Made by a program: the position numbers and the translations under genes. Positions 35,778 to 51,732 of a DNA stretch of 64,000 bases are shown here, piece after piece (positions within the stretch are counted from its first letter, which is position 1; every line of letters starts with the position of its first letter). The DNA comes from Plasmodiophora brassicae (taxonomy: Eukaryota). Under the pieces are notes generated by a model that was given only the letters and a program-made list of their open reading frames with translations, did no database searches and had not been told where the DNA came from. The stretch is taken from contig CP145416.1 of assembly GCA_036867785.1 (NCBI GenBank), positions 1,302,001 through 1,366,000 of the forward strand, in the 5' to 3' direction.

Positions 35778-37559
35778 CTAGCTCGCCTGCTTCCAGGCGG
35801 GCAGCGCACGAGACCCTGGGCCTGCACGACGTCGTTCAGAGCGGCACAGACGCGAGAAGCGCATCAGGCAGTGGAGCCGGGTACCCGTGTACAGCGATGA
35901 CGGGCGGATCAGCTTGCCAGCGGCGCGCTCTTCCAGGATGTGAGCCGCCCAGCCGGCTGTCCTGGCAATGACGAACACGGGCGTGAAGAACGGCGTCGGC
36001 AGGCCGCACTAGGTCGGACGTCAACAACGGCAGACGACGGACGCGACACACCACCAAACGGGTACCATGTTGTAGGCGGACGCCGTGTAGAAGTCGAGGT
36101 TAGGCGGGATCTTCTTCTCCTCCAGCATCAACTGAAACCATGTGGGCGCGTGAGACCTGCGCCCAAGGGCGGGCCTGCGCTAACCCAGACCTTTTCGATG
36201 CGCTGCGAGATGGCGTACAGGTCTGGCCGGCCACCTTCCGCTTTCGACAGCTTCTCCGAGCACGCCTTGATGATGTCGCTGCGAGGGTCGCGTTTCTGCG
36301 CACGACCGTCAGTCGAGCGTCACACCACCCAGGTCGCCCAGGCGGCCAAACCTTGTAGATCCGGTGGCCGAACCCCATGATCAGCTCTTTGTTTGCCAGC
36401 TTCTTCCGCATGCCACCCTCGATGTCGTCGTCAACTTTGAACTGCGAGATGAGCTCCATGGCAGCTTCGTTGGCACCCCCTGCGCGCACACATGCACTTG
36501 CCTTGGACGCAGGCCAGGGCATCCATATGCGACCAGGGCGTACCGTGCAACGTCCCTCGGAGCGTTCCGATCGCGGAGCAGACCGCCGAATAGACGTCGG
36601 ACCTCGTACTAGTCGTGACACGGGAGGCGAACGTGCTGGCGGCGAATCCGTGTTCCTGCCGAGACGCCGGTCAGTCAACCGGTGGCCGGAGCGGCGGGGG
36701 CAGCGTCACTGACCGCGTACAGGATCAGCGACAGGTCAACCGTCTGGACCTTGTCCGGGCTGATGCTGTCCGTCTGGAGCAAGTTGCGAAGGAAATGGGC
36801 GGCAATGGACTCGTCATCGCTCCCGGCCGTGTCGATGCGCTTCCCGGACGTGTGGAACGCATGCCAGTAGCACAGCGCCGGGCCGAACCCGGCGATCAGC
36901 GACGTGAACGCGTCATCGGTTGACACGCTTGTCGGACTGCCCGGCCAGGTCGTCATCAGTACCCGCAACGACAAGAAACAGCGGGCAGCGGCAGGCGGTA
37001 CCTCGACTGTTCGCCGCCGTTCGACAGGTAGCCGGTCTCGGGGCGCAGGCATCCCAGCATGGAACAGGTCGACCGTAGAACGTCCATGGGGTTGGCGGAC
37101 AACGGTATGTGTTCGAGCATGACGCGGACGGCCTTGGGGATGACGCGGTACTCGTTGAGGCGGGCCCGATACGACTTCAGCTGCGCCGGCGTCGGCAGGT
37201 CCCCGTAGATCAGCAGGTAGGCGACCTCCTCGAACTCGCAGGCGCGGCACAGGTCCTCGATGCTGTACCCTGTACCAAGGGCAGGGCTGTCGTCAGCCGC
37301 GGCGGCTGCTATGCACACCGCAGCGTACCTCGGTAGTGCAGGCCGTCGCCGCCCATCCCGACGGTGCATACCTTCGTCTCGCCCGCAATCACGCCAGCCA
37401 AGCCTACACACCGCCGTCAGCGACGGACACGGCCGGTACGACCTGAACAAGACAGCCCCGCGGAACGGCACCTTTCGAATACGACTTGGCCGGCGCAGCG
37501 GACCCTGCTGCCGACAGGCACCGGACGGGACCGCACCGAGCCAGGACGCGTCGCCACAT
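35778..37559 (-). CDS. prpC: Mitochondrial 2-methylcitrate/citrate synthase (PrpC-like), multi-exon
   Basis: Presequence [86 protein letters not shown]. Confidence 0.88.
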
Positions 37560-37980
37560 GGCAATGGATCGCGGGCCGAACGACAAAATGTGCCCCCAGC
37601 GGGGAGGAGGTCTCTCGAAAAAAGGGGGGGGACCGCGTCACCACGCGACCCCCCGGTCACATCATCGGCCGTCACCGTCACCGTCCGGCGCTGAATTCCC
37701 CACAAACACGGCAACCGGCTGTTTGCTGCTGCTGCTGCTGCTGCCCCGTGACGGCGCACTTGTACCATCCATGTTGGTGCGCGACAGGCCAGGACTGCCG
37801 CCGATGCAGTCATGCAGGTGCGTGCGCCGTGCCAGTGTGATGGTCGCGCTGCAGTTGCGGGGTTTTTGGTGGCGGGCGCGGCAGGTCCGGGTCCGGGTCC
37901 GGGCCCCCCTCGCCCAGGCGAGAGAGCGCAGCGCGTGCGGCGACCCGTTCAGCTCAGTTGGCCGACGAAGCGCACCGGTG

Positions 37981-39775
<1,795 letters not shown>

Positions 39776-42339: not shown

Positions 42340-44153
42340 CTAGGACATTGCCGGCGCGGGATTGTCGACTTGAATGTTGCGATCGACCTCGAGCGCTTGC
42401 GTCATGGCGTTGTACCTGACCTGGAACGGGCGCGGCAGCGAATCAGCAAAGTCGCGCATCTTGGCAGTCGCGTCGTCGAAGCTGCTGGCTAAGAAGTAGG
42501 TCGGCTGGTACTGTCAGGCACGTCATGTGAACCACACGACGAAGCACGCGCCAAACGTGTTGCGCCGACCGTTGTGATAGGATACTCGGTCTGGGCGGCA
42601 ACGTACGGATCCCATGGTAGAATGGCCGGCTTGTCGGACATGGCGTACTCCAGCTCGCCGAACGAGCTCAGGAGGCCTGCACCGTATGCTTTGCGCTGCC
42701 CATCCTGCTGACAGAGGCCAAATTCGACTAGCGACCATATCAGCCTGGGTAATCAGCAACATGCGATCGACAGCGTCAGCGAATGTGGAGACCTGTGAAC
42801 CAGTAGCACCGGGCCAGCATGGTGATCTGCTCCTCGCTGGCGCCGATCGACGCCATACCGATCTCTTGCGAGAAATCAGCAAACGCGGCATTGGCGAACA
42901 TTGGCGCATGCCTGGGCAAGCAGTCAGGACGAGAGCAACAATGTGTACGGCGATGAGGCCGGAGCCCACACGACGGGCCAGTCTTCGTATGGCGCAGCAC
43001 GTACCCCATGAGTTCGTGGACGACATCAGGTTCCGGTGTGTACCTTGAACAACGGCACGATTAGCAGGCGGGAAACCGACGACGACGCTCGACGTACAGT
43101 GGCTTGCTGTGATGCCGGATATACTGTGTCGAGTAGAACACCCGGAAGGCGAGGCCGCTGAAGAAATCACGCGGGGACAGCAGGCCGGCGACCGGGCGCA
43201 ACCGGAACCCGGTCCGTTTCTGCAGGAACTGGGAGATGTCCTCGAGCTGGGGGATGGAATCTCGCGCGTACCCGCATTGCGCTTCCATCCCATCCAGGAT
43301 ATCAGTGTACTCTTCGCAGGCGTGCTGCTGCAGAAGCGGGCGAAGCTTGTCCCAGACTGGCAGACACTCAACCGTCACAATCGGCCCATTCGCAGGGACA
43401 GGGTATGCGACGAATGCGATCACCTAGACCCCAGGTGCCGACCTCCTCCTGGCTGTAGTCGATACGGGCGATCGGCTCACCACTGCGACTGGCGTCAGCA
43501 CCGCGAACTAGCCGTACGAGGGACGATGTGTGTGGTACTGCTTGTAGGCGGCGGCCGCCTGGGTGATGCGGGCGCGCCGGTCACGGTAGGCCTGGTCGTG
43601 GAACCCCGGATGGTCGGATTCCAGCTCGTCTCCCGCGTCCAGCACCGTCTGCACAATCAGGTCCATATCGGTGACCCGCCTGGGAAACCACGGCACTGGG
43701 AACAGGGTCGAAGGTCAACGACGGACCAGCCACCGTGGACGACCAGATGGCATACCCTTGCGGCCCCCGATCAACATGACGGACCGACAGCAGGACTTCA
43801 AGTCGGCGACGAGCTTCTTCACGCGGTCGTCCTTGGCGTCGCCGTCAAAGTCGACATAAAACTGTACAAATCGTGGGCGCGCTCAGTGCCCGACACGCAG
43901 CGAATCGGCGCGGCACGCCAGAGCCACTGCCTACGTCGTAGTCGTTGGTGAATTTACTGGGCCTGCTCTCGATGCGCGTCATATTCACGTCGTTCTTCCA
44001 GAAGAATTGCAGGGCGGTCTGCAGGGCGCCCGGCCGGTCGCTGACGCTGAACACGGCCGACACCTTGCCGATGTCGGCACTGCCGCCCAGGGTAGCGGCT
44101 AGGCGGGCGCCCCGCCCCCATGCCATCGAAGGCAGCCGCCAGCCGGGACGCAT
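42340..44153 (-). CDS. PAH: Phenylalanine-4-hydroxylase (ACT + catalytic domain), multi-exon
   Basis: [80 protein letters not shown]. Confidence 0.95.
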
Positions 44154-44670
44154 GATCTGGTCGGGGCTCGCGACAGGGTGAGACCCCCGACGATGTTCGT
44201 TCGAAAACAACAAGACACGCGTGCGATGGGCCGAAGTTGACTGAGTAAAGATACCTAGCTCGGCCACGACAGCGTTTTTTTTTATGTGGCCGTTGGGTGA
44301 GCGCCCCCTCCTGCCTGGCCCGCCCCCGCACCGCCACCAGCGAACGCATACAGTTATTCGCAGGCAGACGTACTCTGGTGTCGACGGCCCGTGAAACGGC
44401 ACACACGGCAATGACAGCCCCCCTCCGCACCATTGTGCTCGCACTGTCCTCTTATCCCGCTGGGCGCAGGACGAACGTGTCGAGTGCGCGCGCAGAGACA
44501 CGCGGGACCCGCGCGATGATGTCGGTGGCCTCAACGTTAACGCATGCCCGCGTCCGTAAGGTACTTGCACATGTATCCTAGTAGGTAAAGTAGCCGGATG
44601 CCGTTTGCACAATGAATGCACACACAGACACACCGCGGGCCAACGACTAGCGAGGCGACCAGGTCGGTGA

Positions 44671-46348
44671 TCACCTGCGCGCGAGGAGGCGGATGGACGA
44701 GGTCGCTAGCGTCGACATGAGATGCCTGGAGACGTTGACGTTGCGCCCGGACAGGGACGCGTTCTTGTAGGCCGGCCATTTGCTGTGGAACGGGTCTGCG
44801 ATGCCAAACCGTTTCATGAAGGTGTACGTCTGCGGGTTCAACTCCAGCGCTGCGCCAAACCCAGGGATCAGACAATGCGGCTGCCAGCAGGACGGACGAC
44901 GCCTACGGGCCGGTAGCGGTTCGACAGTGGACAGCTGGCGGCGACGCCTGCCGGGCGTATACGGGGGGACCGTCGCCGTGAAGTTGGCCGGAACGGGCGG
45001 CTCATCTCCAAACTCGTTCCGAATGCGTTGCGTCTCCTGCGACATTGTCAGCATTTCGAGACGGGAGAGGGGTATGGCCGATACTGGTGAACCTCTGCGA
45101 TAGCATCGGGCGACACGACCTCGTCGCTGAGGAGCGGGGCAATCGCGTCTACAGAGAGGTGCGGGGCGGTTAATCGTTGGATAGCGAGCCACTCGGGATC
45201 GTAGCACAACGGGGCATCAGACGGAGCGTCGACGGGAACCGGATGCATGTCCATGAACTTGCGATTCGGGCCCGGCTTGTCATACGACATAAACGACGTG
45301 ACACGGTCGCCGTGAGGGACGCGCGCGTCGAACCGGCAATGCAGGTGGGCACTGAACCAGTAGTTGGGCTGCAGGCGGTCCATGATGTCAGGAAGGTACG
45401 GGTTGCCGAGGACCCCGGTCGCAATGTCCTTCTCCAGGTGCGGCTTCTTGGCGATCAACGCGGCACGATCCCCCCACTGGGTCACCCGCTGCGGCCAGTC
45501 GTGGGACATGAACACGTCGACGGTGCCCGTCAACTGCTGGAGCACTCAGCCCGGGCAACGTGAGGAAAAGGGGGGACGCATGCCGGACCTGCATGAGCTT
45601 GAAGATTTCACATTGACGCGTGTGGTAGATCGAACGGATATGCCTGCCCTGGAGCGGGAAGTCCTCATGGTACCCGGCATTGAAGTTGTCGGGATAGTAG
45701 ACGCCCGAGATGCCGGCGATGCGTAGGCCTCGATATCGTACACACCCGGAATTCCCCAAGTAGTACATGTTGGGGGCGACCCAACCGCCAAAGTACCTAT
45801 CATCACGGCGCACGAAGCGCATGAGCAGATCGCAGGCCGACGGGCCGCCAGGCGCGGGTACAGTTCGAAATTGTAGTTGGACGCCTCGTGGTTGCCCTGG
45901 TATCAGATAGCCAACCAGTTAGTTCGTCGGCTGTGCAGGAGGCGAGACGGCACCGACCCCGATGAGAATCGTCAGAACGGGAGCTGTCCGTTGCCCCGAA
46001 TAGTACCTGCGAGAAGCGATGCACGGCTGGGTGACTGACTCGCAGTGCCGACCAACGGAGCGCACACATACTTGTAGAACGAATGCATGTCCCGATACTT
46101 CTCGGGGCAGGACATCTGCTGCAAGTCGCCCGGGGTCCGGCAGGCCTGAAAGTCGCCACACACCTAAACAGCAACCACCGCCTGCATCAGCGTGCTGACA
46201 GGCGCCCCCGCTAGATGGGTCGGACGAGAAGCAGGTCGGCCTGTTGTTCGCGTCGTTCCTCGATCTGGGCGAGGCGCTCGTAGACGCGGTCCAGCTCGCC
46301 GTGCACGCACCCGGTGACGCCGACCTGCAATACGCCGGCGCCGTCCAT
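44671..46348 (-). CDS. DBR1: RNA lariat debranching enzyme, canonical copy (A), multi-exon
   Basis: All metal-binding and catalytic motifs present after splicing: [31 protein letters not shown]; also YDPEWLAI and LNPQT. Confidence 0.93.
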
Positions 46349-46577
46349 CGTCAAACGCCAATCGTGTAGCAGCTGCACTATTAACAGCCCTGAGCCGCTC
46401 GGGGCCTTCGCAGAAAGACGACGACGACTATGACCCTGATCGTTTCGACGACGCTGGTTATCCACCCATGTCTTTACGATAATTTTAGTCGCGCGCGCGC
46501 TGCAGACCGAATAAACAGCCGGCATCGAGGCCGCCATTGCGTCTGGTGTGGTCTGGCCGGTGCCGATGGGCGCTGCT

Positions 46578-48460
46578 CTAGAATTCGCTGTCGTTGTGCG
46601 TCATGGCCTCGTCCCAGTCGAGCAGAGCGTTCATCATGCCGCCGGGCCTCTGGACGTACTTCTTCTTGAGTTCTTCCAGCTTCTTGGCGTCCATGGGTGT
46701 CGCACTGCGGTACTGTAAGGGGATCTCGGGATCGACATCGGGGACCAGTTCAGCCAACGGCGGCGGTGGTGCCGGCCCCATATTGTCAAACAGCGGTTCA
46801 GACGGTATCGACTGTTTCACAGGCCTTGGTGTCACATTCGTGATGTCTCGCTTGTCGGAGAAAGGGTCGTCGACGTTGAGTCGGGCCAGGAGCGACGCCG
46901 TCTGGGGCAGCAGTTCCAGCTTCAGCTGTTCCCAGAGCGCACGCCGTTTCGTGGGCAACGTCTGCAACGCGACAATGAGCGAACAGATGTCGAACAGCAA
47001 ACGCATCGACAGTCATACGAGGCGCATGTGCTGGATGGTCTTATACGGCATCACAGTCTTGTCGCAGACTAGCGGTATTCGAAAGTCCCCGTCGAACTCC
47101 TCGTGAATGTTCTCCACTTCCTACCCGCGTTGTCATGTCACAATGGGACCCCCACGGCACAGCCAGCCAGGCGCGATCCGCAAATCTCTACCTGGCGAAT
47201 GAGGTCGGGGTTGAGCTGATCGTCAGTGATTCGAGGACAGTTGATTTTCTTGGACGACAGAAGTGGAGTCGTCAGTCGCAGGATCGCAAGCCATTCCGGA
47301 TCATAGCGCAGGACGGGGTCGCCACTGAATGGCACCTGGGCGGCACGTCAGGATTGTGAGCAGGCGCGGAGCACACAGCAGGTCGTCGTGCAGCGCACCT
47401 CAATAATTTCGAACGAGTCCTCCTGCTTCTCCACTTTAGGCAACGAATGAAAGATGGTCTGCTCGCCGTCGTCATGCATGTAGCAACCCCGCGCCCTTGT
47501 GTGAAACGCTCCCGACACCCAGAATGCTGGTTTATGCTTGTGCAGCAGCTCTAGTGCCATGCAGTACACCGTCAGGCAAGACTGATAAACGCCATCACAC
47601 ACACACACACATACGATCGAAATGAGGATTGCCCAGCTTGTTCGCTTCGGCTTTGGCTCCCAGGCTCGGCCGGTGTTGGAAGACGGCCTCCTTCTCCTCG
47701 ATGCACCCAATAATGGCACTGGGCCACTCATATGACATGAACAGGTCGATCTTGCCGGATAGGGCCAGGCCTTTCGACACCTCGTAATGTCTGGTGGCCG
47801 GGAAATCCTTGACGTCCGATTTGGACAGCGGGAACGCCTCATGGTACCCGCGATCGTACTGGACCGGGTTGTACATTCCGCCGACGCCAGCGATCCGCAA
47901 ATTGCCGAACTGGACACAGCCTGAGCTGCCCAGGTAATAGATCATGGGCGCGATAAACCCGCCCCAGTACCTGAACACGAACGATCGTAAGCCACATGGG
48001 ACGCGCGTCTGCGACGCGTTGCTACGACATTTCGAACAGGTAATTCGATGCCTCGTGTGACCCGCCGATCACAATGGCCGGCATCTTTGGCCGGATTTCC
48101 GATTTGTAGAACTTGTAGAACGACTGCCTGGGAGCACGCGCCAGAACTATTAGTATACGAGCGGGGCCATACACGGCACAGACGCCAACCCACTTGGACG
48201 TATACCGATCCGGTCTGTGCACCTGCAGCAGGTCCGTTCGGTTACGCGCTGCGAGAAACGACCCACAGAACTGAGGCACAATCGTGGGCGGGTGTCAGTA
48301 GAGGCAGACGGGCAATGGGTCGTCATCACTGTACGAGGAGAAGATGCACGCGGCGACGATGCCGTTGTTCGTACTTCAGAATGCGGTTGTAGACGCGTTC
48401 GATCTCACCGTGGCACTGCCCGATGACCGCAATCCGCAGCTTGTCGAGGGGCCTGCGCAT
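46578..48460 (-). CDS. DBR1 paralog B, predicted catalytically inactive, multi-exon
   Basis: Colinear with DBR1 but motifs read GQCHG, CGSF, GGSHEASNY, SYEWP, WVSGAFH. Retains YDPEWLAI; the 5' splice junctions checked keep frame. Confidence 0.85.
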
Positions 48461-48681
48461 CGCGACGGCCGCCGCCTTCGGGTTCGGCAGCGGTGCGGCA
48501 CGTGGCAGTCCACAGTAGGTACCGGGTTAGGAAGGCGGGGCGGGGCTTGCGCGCCTAGGTATGATAGGTATGCGCGACTGGTGCACGCAGTGGGAAGCTG
48601 CAGCCGCGCGCGGCCGGCACGGACTGCGCCAAACGCACACGACGACGGGCCCGCCTGCTCGCCCCGCACTCGTCAGGACCA

Positions 48682-50370
48682 ATGCTGATCGCCGTCGCCG
48701 GCAATGTCCATGGCGAGTTCTACCATGTGCACAAGGCGCTGCTGAAGCGCAAGAAGATCGTCGGCGACACCGTCGACCTGCTCATCGTAAGTCCCGGAGC
48801 TGGCGCTGCCCCAAGGACGTTGCATTGCAAACTGATCTGGGCGGGCGGGGTCCTTCCCCCGATAGGTCTGCGGCAACATGCTGGCGGCGCGCAACGCCTC
48901 CGATCTGACCCAGGTCGTCATGCCCGATCGCTACCAATCGCGTCACTCCTTCTACAAGTGCGTCTTTCGAACGTTTGCGTTGATGCGCCGGGTCCCTGAC
49001 GGCTGACGTTTGCCGCCCAGGTATTACACGCGGGAACTGATGGCCCCGACCAATGTCCTGTTCATTGGCGGGGAGCAGGAGGCGTACAACTTCCTGATGG
49101 AGATGTACTTCGGGGGATGGGTCGCCCCGCGCGTCTTCTACATGGGCCATGCGGGCTGCGTCCAGTACGGCGGCCTGCGTATCGCCGGCATCTCGGGCGT
49201 GTTCGACGAACGCCACTACGAGTCGGGATACTTCGAGTCGTACCCGCTGGTCAACGACGATATCGAGACGGCAACGTACACGCGACGAATGGAGATGCAG
49301 AAGCTGATGTCATTGTCGGGCCAGGCCGACATTGTCCTGTCGCATGACTGGCCGCGGGGCATCCTGCAGTACGGTGACGATGAGGTCCTGATCAACCATC
49401 GACCCCAGCTGGCGAAGCAGATTGCGGCGGACGCGTTTGGCAACCCGCACCTGGACGACCTGATGACGCACCTGAGACCCGGTCACTGGTTCTCGGCCCG
49501 TTGGCAACTCAAGTGGAGCGCCGCATGGCGACACGCGAACGGCCAGCAGACCTTGTTCTACTCGGCACCAAAGACCTGCCGCCGGAAGGACTTCCTGCAG
49601 TACTTTGACATACCGTCCAAGAACGATGACCGCGACATCCAGTTCGATCCGGAATGGCTGGCCATAACGCGACTCAGCTCGCCTTTGCTGTCGTGTGACC
49701 CTGCATCGCAGCCGATCGAATTGACATCGGAAGCCATCCAAGCCGTGCGTCTTCGTGCAGCATGGCCTGTCGAATGTCGCCTCGTTGTGCTGACGTGGTG
49801 ATGGATGGCAGGAAACCGACGTGGTGCGCGCCGAACTGAACGACCAACTCAAGGTGCCGCTCGAGTTCGAACGTACCGTCAAACCGCACAAGTTCAACCA
49901 CGCGCGTATGGTCTGCAAGCCGAAGCGACGCATGGATTACCTGGAACGTACCAGTAAGCACCACGTTTCCCGCGTGCATCGTCTGTCGCGACGCCCGGTG
50001 GTCTGACACCTGTTTGGTCACAGCCCTACAGCTGAACCCGTACACGTCCCACTTCATGGAGCGGATGCGAATCGCCGATCCGTTTGTTGACAAGCGCAAT
50101 CGGACGGTAGAGCGGAAGGTGGAGCCGAAGAACCGCCTGTCAAAGGAGGAGAAGATGGCAATGAAGATCGCGCCGTACGACGAACGGTTCTGTTTTGAGA
50201 ACGGGAAAATGCCGTTCGAGAACGGCGACCTGCTGGGCTTGAATCCGACTTCGACGCCTGCGTTCCGAATGCCGGCAGCAACGAGCCTGCGGCTCGACCG
50301 CTTCCGTCAATCGCGGGTGATGTCGACTCTGGCCACGTCAGCAATGAGCGTTGTACGACGTGTTCGCTAG
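48682..50370 (+). CDS. DBR1 paralog C, predicted catalytically inactive, multi-exon
   Basis: Motifs read GNVHG, CGNM, GGEQEAYNF, SHDWP, WFSARWQ. Retains [24 protein letters not shown] and LNPYT. Confidence 0.87.
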
Positions 50371-50850
50371 GTTTGGGCATCCAGCCGATGGCATAAACAT
50401 ATACGTACGATGTATTTCCGTGGCAGAGCGTCCGCTACTTCGTTATGGGCGACTGGCTGGTCCTGCGGATCGGGTCGCATGACACACCGATCTATGGGGA
50501 ACATGCGCGGCCGCAGGGTCCAGGAAAGATGCCGCAACGGGCCAGGCTCTGGCCGAATGAAGCCATTCAATGCCGTCGGTGCGTGGCACCCCCAATTGAG
50601 GTCGTCACGAGCCAGAGCGTTCCTGCAGGTGGTCTGGAATATTCTGGGACGCCCTAGCGGCCAATCGGCCCTGCCGTATTACAGGCCAGGGCCACATTGT
50701 AGTAACAGACGAACCCTTGCCCATTTCTGTGTCGTCGTCGTTCGGCAACCCCTCGTCGGCGACGTTGATCCGGAGTCGTAGCACAGCGCCGTCTCCCGCC
50801 CGCCCACCAGAACGGCCCATCGATCGCAACGTGAACCGCGCCGCCAACTG

Positions 50851-51732
50851 ATGAAGCATTGCACGCTCCTGGCCATTCTACTGTCGGGCCTCTTGTCGGC
50901 CGCTGTCGAGACCGACTTTTCGTACGCCGACCAGGGCGCCTGGCAGACGCTGCCCAACTCGCAATGCGGTGGACGTCGCCAATCGCCAGTCGACCTGGAC
51001 CTACGCAACGTGACCGTGGACAAGATCCTGGGTCAAGATCTGGCTTGCACCTGGCAGCAGAACAAGGCGGTCATAGAGGGCGACCTGGTTAACACCGGAC
51101 GGACGATGGAGCTGGACGTTCGGTCGCCACACACGTGTCGTGGCGTCCCTGGGTCGCCCAGTGCCCACTTCCGCCTCGCCGCCGTCCACATCCACTATGG
51201 CAGCGCCTCCGACCAGGGCAGCGAACACACGATCAACGGGCGAACGTCGGCGCTGGAGGTTCACATGGTGCACTTTGACACAAGGTTCGCCAGCTTGGAC
51301 AAGGCCCGCGAGCAGCCGGGCGGGATCATGGTCGCCGGCCTGCTATTCGACGAAGCTGACGAGGCGATCGCGAACCCGGAGCTGACGAAGATGGCGGTCA
51401 TCAGCGGGACGGCGCTACGGTCCACAGGAGGCGTGCTCGCTAGCCGCCTGAACGCGGCCCCGCTGATTGAAGGCACAGGACTGGATAAGGCTCGGGCGCG
51501 CTTCCTGACGTACGCGGGATCGCTGACGACGCCGACCTGTAACGAGGTCGTCACCTGGATCGTCGCCGCGGAACCTGGTCTGGTGGGCCACCAGACCATG
51601 CACCTGCTACGTACCGTGACGGGCCTGGGCAACAAGACGATCACGCCCAATTTCCGACAGGTCCAGCCGCTGAACGGACGCACGATCACGAGCTCGTTCC
51701 AGCCGGCCTGTGGTCTACACGGCCGCTGTTAG
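50851..51732 (+). CDS. Secreted alpha-carbonic anhydrase, intronless
   Basis: Signal peptide; QSPVDL, zinc ligands VHIHYG..GSEHT..LEVHMVH, YAGSLTTPTCNEVVTW, NFRQVQPLNGR. Confidence 0.95.
   Translation: MKHCTLLAILLSGLLSAAVETDFSYADQGAWQTLPNSQCGGRRQSPVDLDLRNVTVDKILGQDLACTWQQNKAVIEGDLVNTGRTMELDVRSPHTCRGVPGSPSAHFRLAAVHIHYGSASDQGSEHTINGRTSALEVHMVHFDTRFASLDKAREQPGGIMVAGLLFDEADEAIANPELTKMAVISGTALRSTGGVLASRLNAAPLIEGTGLDKARARFLTYAGSLTTPTCNEVVTWIVAAEPGLVGHQTMHLLRTVTGLGNKTITPNFRQVQPLNGRTITSSFQPACGLHGRC

Follow-up and report, generated by a model that had tools for sequence, protein, structure and literature searches.

Published accounts present DBR1 as the only activity that debranches lariats (PMC12238851, PMC11139901, PMC9202583), and three genes of the DBR1 family stand side by side at positions 44671-50370 of the stretch of Plasmodiophora brassicae DNA analysed here (the window, 64 kb; all coordinates refer to it). 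They are called copies A, B and C. The canonical DBR1 (Entamoeba, 4PEF/5K77; PBRA_002668 of P. brassicae) has a two-domain build, a phosphoesterase domain with a lariat-recognition loop followed by the DBR1 C-terminal domain (PF05011). In Entamoeba Dbr1, the metal is held by Asp45, Asn90, His180 and His230, and His91 acts as the acid. Cys14 is described as invariant, and the C14A or C14S enzyme fails to complement. The branch adenine is held by stacking against His16 and Tyr64, and Arg158 organises the lariat-recognition loop (PMC4176325).

A second described system is Drn1/CWF19L1, which also contains a Dbr1-related domain, has lost essential active-site residues, is conserved, and takes part in lariat turnover, thereby providing the precedent for a dead Dbr1-like domain used in binding (as described in PMC4105757 and PMC13736545). 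In human cells, the inert metallophosphoesterase (MPP) domain of CWF19L1 binds peptide I (ALSSINPDEIMLDEE), a C-terminal motif of DBR1; peptide I tethers DBR1 to the intron-lariat spliceosome, and DBR1 without it fails to rescue growth, according to PMC13736545. Full-text searches of the literature returned no publication that deals with DBR1 paralogues in P. brassicae, and none on a DBR1 pseudoenzyme that has the DBR1 C-terminal domain. To our knowledge, Drn1/CWF19L1, of different architecture, is the only known dead relative of DBR1.

Canonical DBR1 and the three copies in the window have in common the two-domain build, the arginine of the loop, the DPEWLAI motif and the stacking pair His16/Tyr64, and A shares the full active site as well. 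Unlike canonical DBR1, B and C are devoid of Cys14 and of most metal ligands, and C is also devoid of the acid. B and C are expressed DBR1 paralogues, and we consider it reasonably probable that they are maintained, catalytically dead proteins, which would dock on branched RNA and leave it uncut, with A probably active.

Active sites and RNA-contact residues

Copy A (44671-46348, minus strand) has 8 exons and encodes 418 amino acids (aa), copy B (46578-48460, minus strand) has 8 exons and encodes 479 aa, and copy C (48682-50370, plus strand) has 5 exons and encodes 469 aa. All three are complete, intron-bearing genes, modelled by joining exons by hand from both strands of 44500-50700, with introns of 55-79 nt whose ends are GT..AG throughout. 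An earlier note on this DNA, made from the sequence, had placed three adjacent DBR1-like genes here; the gene models, the matches to PF05011 and the family profile scores bear this out, and all the motif strings that it quoted are found exactly in the translations. In A, these motifs are GCVHG, CGDF, GGNHE, SHDW and AHLH. In B, they are changed to GQCHG, CGSF, GGSHE, SYEW and GAFH, and in C to GNVHG, CGNM, GGEQE, SHDW and ARWQ.

The eight active-site columns were read from 358 protein rows aligned with MAFFT (A, B and C together with 355 fetched proteins), in which P0199 (2101 aa, CHNHRHHN) and a few other odd rows may be misaligned. These columns are CHDNHHHH in 306 of the 358 rows, including A, which retains all eight residues; B (QHSSHYAH) retains three and C (NHNEQHRQ) two. 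B has lost Cys14 together with all four metal ligands, which are replaced by Ser, Ser, Tyr and Ala, and retains His16, His91 and His232. In C, the losses comprise Cys14, three metal ligands out of four (replaced by Asn, Glu and Arg), the acid His91 and also His232; His16 and His180 are retained. By analogy with the mutants of Entamoeba Dbr1 in the literature, B and C would be unable to bind the catalytic metal and would have lost activity. A is probably still a 2'-5' phosphodiesterase. Across the 95 conserved columns of the alignment, 94 are kept in the canonical P. brassicae protein PBRA_002668 (P0002), 87 in A, 64 in C and 57 in B; for the 87 non-catalytic columns among them, the numbers are 79 in A, 62 in C and 54 in B. 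The loss at the catalytic columns of C significantly exceeds its general loss (Fisher p=0.014).

The pair that stacks on the branch adenine, His16 and Tyr64, is kept as H and Y in both B and C, the two columns having been located by aligning C with chain 4peh in HMMER. Furthermore, the arginine of the lariat-recognition loop (Arg158) is kept in A, B, C and in P0121, a metagenome protein of the same group described below. The Tyr-His located 2-3 residues before this arginine is kept in A and is replaced by PA in B, TY in C and PF in P0121. The earlier description of B and C as keeping their frames, splice sites, C-terminal domain and lariat-recognition region is right for the first three, and for the region it holds at the arginine but not at the preceding Tyr-His.

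Family membership and predicted fold

The C-terminal domain PF05011 was found in all three copies by scanning 8 exon translations, among them the final exon of each gene, with every score above the cut-off of 26 bits: exon 6 of A (E=3.6e-12), exon 6 of B (E=1.9e-6) and exon 3 of C (E=1.5e-9). The (Y/F)DPEWLAI motif is present in A, B and C. Measured with a profile built from 304 canonical DBR1 rows, the scores are 496 bits for A, 379 for C and 331 for B, and the Entamoeba Dbr1 chains match exon 3 of C with E=1e-30 and whole C with E=4e-43. By these sequence scores, the DBR1 likeness of the three copies is far beyond chance.

The AlphaFold model of C has a mean predicted local distance difference test (pLDDT) value of 83.6, rising above 90 over approximately residues 1-330. 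Its top matches in the PDB are nine Dbr1 chains (E ~1e-32), of which 4pef is the best, with a template modelling (TM) score of 0.83 and E=7e-33. B and C thus belong to the DBR1 family by descent and fold, though not by catalytic signature. As for the C-termini, A (44671-44730) and C (50311-50370) share similar basic tails (...MSTLATS...RR), the tail of C being predicted disordered (pLDDT <50 from residue 410). The tail of B is acidic, unlike those of A and C.

Transcription and splicing

Contigs of four sequencing runs from four studies (X1, X2, X4 and X15) were placed on 44500-50500; X1, X2 and X4 were classed as RNA-derived from the spliced forms in their contigs alone. Each of these three contains at least 15 joints that skip an intron, all of them GT..AG and on the correct strand. 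All seven introns of B and all four introns of C are skipped in these contigs, and B and C are therefore transcribed and spliced, as the earlier note had proposed to check. For A, four of the seven introns are found among the joints listed, and the other three fit the bin depths by arithmetic. The joints also place an acceptor of A at 45533 and one of its introns at 44850-44906. The contig depths (47, 35 and 63 for A, 80-147 for B and C) are unsuited to ranking expression. X15 shows no joints; its contigs are unbroken through the introns and differ at ~1% of bases, and X15 is therefore DNA of another strain.

B and C are arranged head to head, and their start codons are separated by a spacer of 221 bp (48461-48681). 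In X1 and X2, an RNA contig is continuous over 48335-48786 and spans this gap; in X4, the B contig extends to 48616 and the C contig begins at ~48665, by arithmetic on the contig record. The spacer is probably a shared bidirectional promoter that contains both 5' untranslated regions (UTRs), and we infer that B and C are co-regulated. On the other side of B, a spacer of 229 bp (46349-46577, minus strand) separates the stop of B from the start of A and accommodates the 3' UTR of the former gene as well as the 5' UTR of the latter. B contigs start at 46455-46465, and A contigs stop at ~46376-46416, by arithmetic on the record lengths.

Selection on the three copies

The listed differences between the window and X15 cover 44500-47346; 32 of the 72 fall beyond it, in the part that includes the remainder of B and the whole of C. 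Over A, 10 of 1257 exonic nt differ compared with 12 of 421 intronic nt (Fisher p=0.004), with three codons residue-changing and five not. Over 46578-47346 of B, the counts are 3 of 630 exonic nt, all synonymous, compared with 9 of 139 intronic nt (p=2e-5). In addition, the GC content of third codon positions (GC3) is 0.74-0.80 in A, B and C, compared with an intron GC of 0.59-0.63, and the reading frames are whole even though the pairwise identity of the copies is 35-42% (B-C 35%). The Nei-Gojobori ratio of nonsynonymous to synonymous change (dN/dS) between the copies is 0.37-0.39, a rough upper-bound hint, given that the synonymous differences are saturated (pS 0.65-0.69). These sequence patterns carry a signature of purifying selection on B and C, and the earlier suggestion that the two are selected rather than neutral agrees with the exon/intron pattern against X15, for part of B, and with the codon bias.

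Descent of the cluster and the fourth DBR1 copy

A fourth DBR1 of P. brassicae, PBRA_002668 (P0002), is 444 aa long, lies on another scaffold and has the complete active site CHDNHHHH. Its identity to A is 46%, and that of A, B and C to it ranges over 35-46%. The acidic tail of P0002 contains two NP(D/E)EI.LD motifs, that is, peptide I, at residues 403 and 427. Compared with PBRA_002668, A, B and C are without the tether motif NP(D/E)(D/E)I.L(D/E) and fall in a separate clade: neither the strict pattern NP[DE][DE]I.[LIVM][DE] nor the loose pattern [NDS]P[DE].I.[LIVM] is found in any of the three. The absence of peptide I is suggestive, not decisive, and on its account the clade of A, B and C would work away from the spliceosome tether.

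The same grouping is apparent in two trees, a quick one of 56 and a careful one of 22 hand-picked rows. The careful tree unites B, C and P0121 with a support of 100/98, and these with A at 98/97; in the quick tree, the corresponding values are 97 and 99. A, B, C and P0121 stand together with P0002 on one side of a branch with the weak support of 73.7. Inside the group of B, C and P0121, the order is loose: C joins P0121 at 72/19, B with P0121 is equally good, and B with C is not rejected by the approximately unbiased test (p-AU 0.085). On this evidence, A, B, C and P0121 appear as a separate, fast-evolving clade, with the three window genes as an old tandem cluster. Five intron positions are common to the copies, two of them in all three and three in two copies, which points to the origin of A, B and C by DNA-level (genomic) duplication.

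The account of this locus as one enzyme and two pseudo-enzymes thus holds as far as the dead sites of B and C are concerned and is incomplete, since the canonical PBRA_002668 is located elsewhere. A has the full active site expected of the enzyme, but it is itself a divergent paralogue that groups with B and C.

P0121 is a 344-aa metagenome protein whose active site is also dead (GMNEHYRY). Over the 95 conserved columns, 12 derived residues are common to it and C; Asn45, Glu90 and Arg230 are among them. Its read-through tail and its lack of introns suggest that it comes from another organism. Scans of metagenome contigs, with P0121 and with the alignment of C and P0121, and a scan of prokaryote genome contigs returned nothing, and proteins of the B/C type have so far been seen only in P. 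brassicae and as this metagenome protein. A similar loss was observed in P0191 (832 aa, AGDRNYRN), a full-length DBR1 homologue with a dead site. Most of its active-site residues are replaced, and two of the changes, Tyr for His180 and Arg for His230, recur in the group of B, C and P0121. However, P0191 groups with the canonical P0141, P0129 and P0172 and not with A, B and C (quick tree, support 91), and it is probably an independent loss of the active site in another eukaryote.

Possible roles of B and C

With the stacking pair and the loop arginine in place, we infer that B and C may bind branched RNA; the earlier suggestion that they are adaptors or competitors, or affect retroelement control, is conjectural. 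In the explanation that we favour, the three window genes are long-established DBR1 paralogues in tandem, additional to the canonical PBRA_002668. Housekeeping debranching would be carried out by PBRA_002668, and A would be a probably active, untethered paralogue. B and C would dock on 2'-5' branched RNA without cutting it, and would either shield chosen lariats from debranching or pass them on, either to A or to PBRA_002668.

Several points weigh against this explanation. The Tyr and His of the lariat-recognition loop that are replaced in B and C are 98-99% conserved in canonical rows, and RNA recognition by B and C may accordingly be altered or lost. The loss at the catalytic columns of B (five of eight) is not significantly above its general loss (Fisher p=0.26). 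The polymorphism signal spans A over its full length, B over no more than the 3' 769 bp, and no part of C. B, C and P0121 sit on long branches, that of B being the longest, which may attract each other artificially, and if P0121 were a fifth P. brassicae paralogue, it would give no evidence of retention across species. P0002 is known from the deposited proteins of the species, not from the assembly to which the window belongs, and only 88 of 305 canonical rows contain peptide I in its strict form, which makes its absence from A, B and C weak evidence. Finally, the support for the role of B and C consists of sequence, RNA contigs and a predicted fold.

The main rival to docking on branched RNA is a protein adaptor of the Drn1 kind, in which the dead domain of B or C would bind peptide I of P0002 in order to recruit, sequester or regulate the enzyme. 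The inert MPP domain of C19L1 is described as binding DBR1 peptide I in just this manner (PMC13736545), and P0002 offers two such motifs. Moreover, the structure that the C model matches best after the Dbr1 chains is 8ro2_L1, a chain of the human intron-lariat spliceosome (TM 0.69, E=7e-18), which is presumably CWF19L1. Nevertheless, the C model is far nearer to Dbr1, at a TM of 0.83, than to this chain, and we regard the adaptor as unlikely, though a serious candidate.

It is improbable that B and/or C are still enzymes with a changed site, acting on branched RNA or on another phosphoester through Cys15 of B or through metal-free or differently liganded chemistry. B does possess a Cys beside the lost Cys14 (GQCHG) and keeps His16, His91 and His232, C keeps His16 and His180, and purifying selection is compatible with catalysis. 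However, the replaced ligands, all four in B and three of four in C, cannot bind metal in the same way, and the single change C14A or C14S is reported to abolish complementation by Entamoeba Dbr1 (PMC4176325). In the precomputed annotation, the Metallophos family PF00149 is listed for A (P0004) and for P0002 and is missing for C (P0001), for which PF05011 is the sole Pfam family over the whole protein. An exon-by-exon search of B with PF00149 likewise gave no match, for which single exons may be too short.

That B and C are decaying pseudogenes, transcribed by chance, is very improbable. Their catalytic residues are lost, B is absent from the protein sets searched, and its branch is the longest; but whole frames of 479 and 469 codons persist despite a B-C identity of 35%, and RNA contigs from three studies show every one of the 7 + 4 canonical introns spliced out correctly. 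Furthermore, exonic differences in B are 14-fold rarer than intronic ones and all synonymous over 46578-47346, GC3 stands well above intron GC, and Asn45, Glu90 and Arg230 are common to C and P0121. The intact frames, the correct splicing and the exon/intron pattern of differences contradict decay.

It is scarcely credible that B and C are effectors aimed at the host, where they would interfere with the lariats or small RNAs of the plant: the idea comes from P. brassicae being an intracellular plant parasite, and the N-termini of B and C (MRRPLDKLRIAV... and MLIAVAGNVHG...) open with the first phosphoesterase strand as in canonical DBR1, with no hydrophobic leader when judged by sequence, without a signal-peptide predictor.

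The probability that B and C are the CWF19L1/Drn1 orthologues of the organism, a possibility that the earlier note had raised for checking, is negligible: B, C and Drn1 are all dead phosphoesterase homologues of Dbr1 (for Drn1, PMC4105757), but Drn1 is defined by C-terminal CwfJ domains described as absent from Dbr1 (PMC4105757), lacks the Dbr1 C-terminal domain and is ancient, from yeast to man, whereas B and C lie inside the DBR1 tree beside A, the C model matches Dbr1 first, and the 8 exon translations, with the final exon of every copy among them, contain PF05011 and no match to a CwfJ family (CwfJ_C_1, CwfJ_C_2), which refutes the orthology.

Docking on branched RNA by B and C can be carried one step further, although this extension is tentative and, on balance, rather doubtful. 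A, B and C would then constitute a branch-RNA module independent of the spliceosome, in which B and C, co-regulated through the bidirectional promoter, act as 'lariat readers' that decide which introns persist. Their dead Dbr1 folds would clamp branch points and leave excised introns as stable lariat or circular RNAs, and A would be a dedicated off-spliceosome debranchase, releasing the introns held by B and C.

Gene models and neighbouring features

The exons of A, stop included, are located on the minus strand at 46348-46226, 46163-46072, 46006-45958, 45896-45862, 45796-45589, 45533-45093, 45036-44907 and 44849-44671. Those of B, on the same strand and also with the stop, are at 48460-48335, 48270-48194, 48127-48029, 47970-47615, 47550-47399, 47335-47192, 47120-47019 and 46961-46578. 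C runs on the plus strand through 48682-48786, 48866-48957, 49021-49744, 49812-49953 and 50024-50370, again including the stop. A tblastn search with all copies against the whole 64-kb window found no further DBR1-like stretch.

C is identical, letter for letter, to the deposited P. brassicae protein P0001 (100% identity). A matches P0004, from another strain, save for three residues and the N-terminal extension of P0004, which is 481 aa long and begins 62 residues upstream of the start of A adopted here. This extension would fall in 46349-46577, within the 3' UTR of B and a gap where X1, X2 and X4 give it no RNA contig support, and it is therefore probably an annotation error. For B, a search with exon 4 (118 aa) among the proteins of 208-2000 aa in a collection of 5.8 billion gave 121 candidates, none of them significant; B seems to be absent from deposited protein sets, that is, an unannotated gene.

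Intron 4 of B contains a (GT)n microsatellite at ~47596-47612, at which the X15 contigs break, with a depth spike of 392 and the loose end ACACACACA. This repeat is probably length-polymorphic between strains. Immediately 3' of C, a single long open reading frame at 50782-51729 (plus strand) encodes an alpha carbonic anhydrase of the eukaryotic type (PF00194, E=2e-53). On the other flank, adjoining A, 43848-44102 (minus strand) has a weak match to an ACT domain, under the Pfam cut-off, which presumably resembles the regulatory domain of an aromatic amino-acid hydroxylase. Farther upstream, 37447-38766 (plus strand) encodes an OB-fold tRNA_anti-codon domain (PF01336).

Significance

P. brassicae has four genes with the DBR1 fold, of which two appear to be naturally catalytic-dead, to keep the substrate-docking parts and to be maintained by selection. 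DBR1 mutants of the C14S and H85A type have been built in laboratories to trap lariats, and B and C would be their natural counterparts. If B and C bind branch points, they would offer a handle on how cells stabilise some lariats and could be used as ready-made reagents for lariat capture. Should B and C act as lariat readers, they would represent the first case in nature of a debranching enzyme turned, under selection, into an inhibitor or reader of lariat branch points. For the biology of clubroot, the cluster adds B as an expressed, apparently unannotated gene and corrects the model of A.

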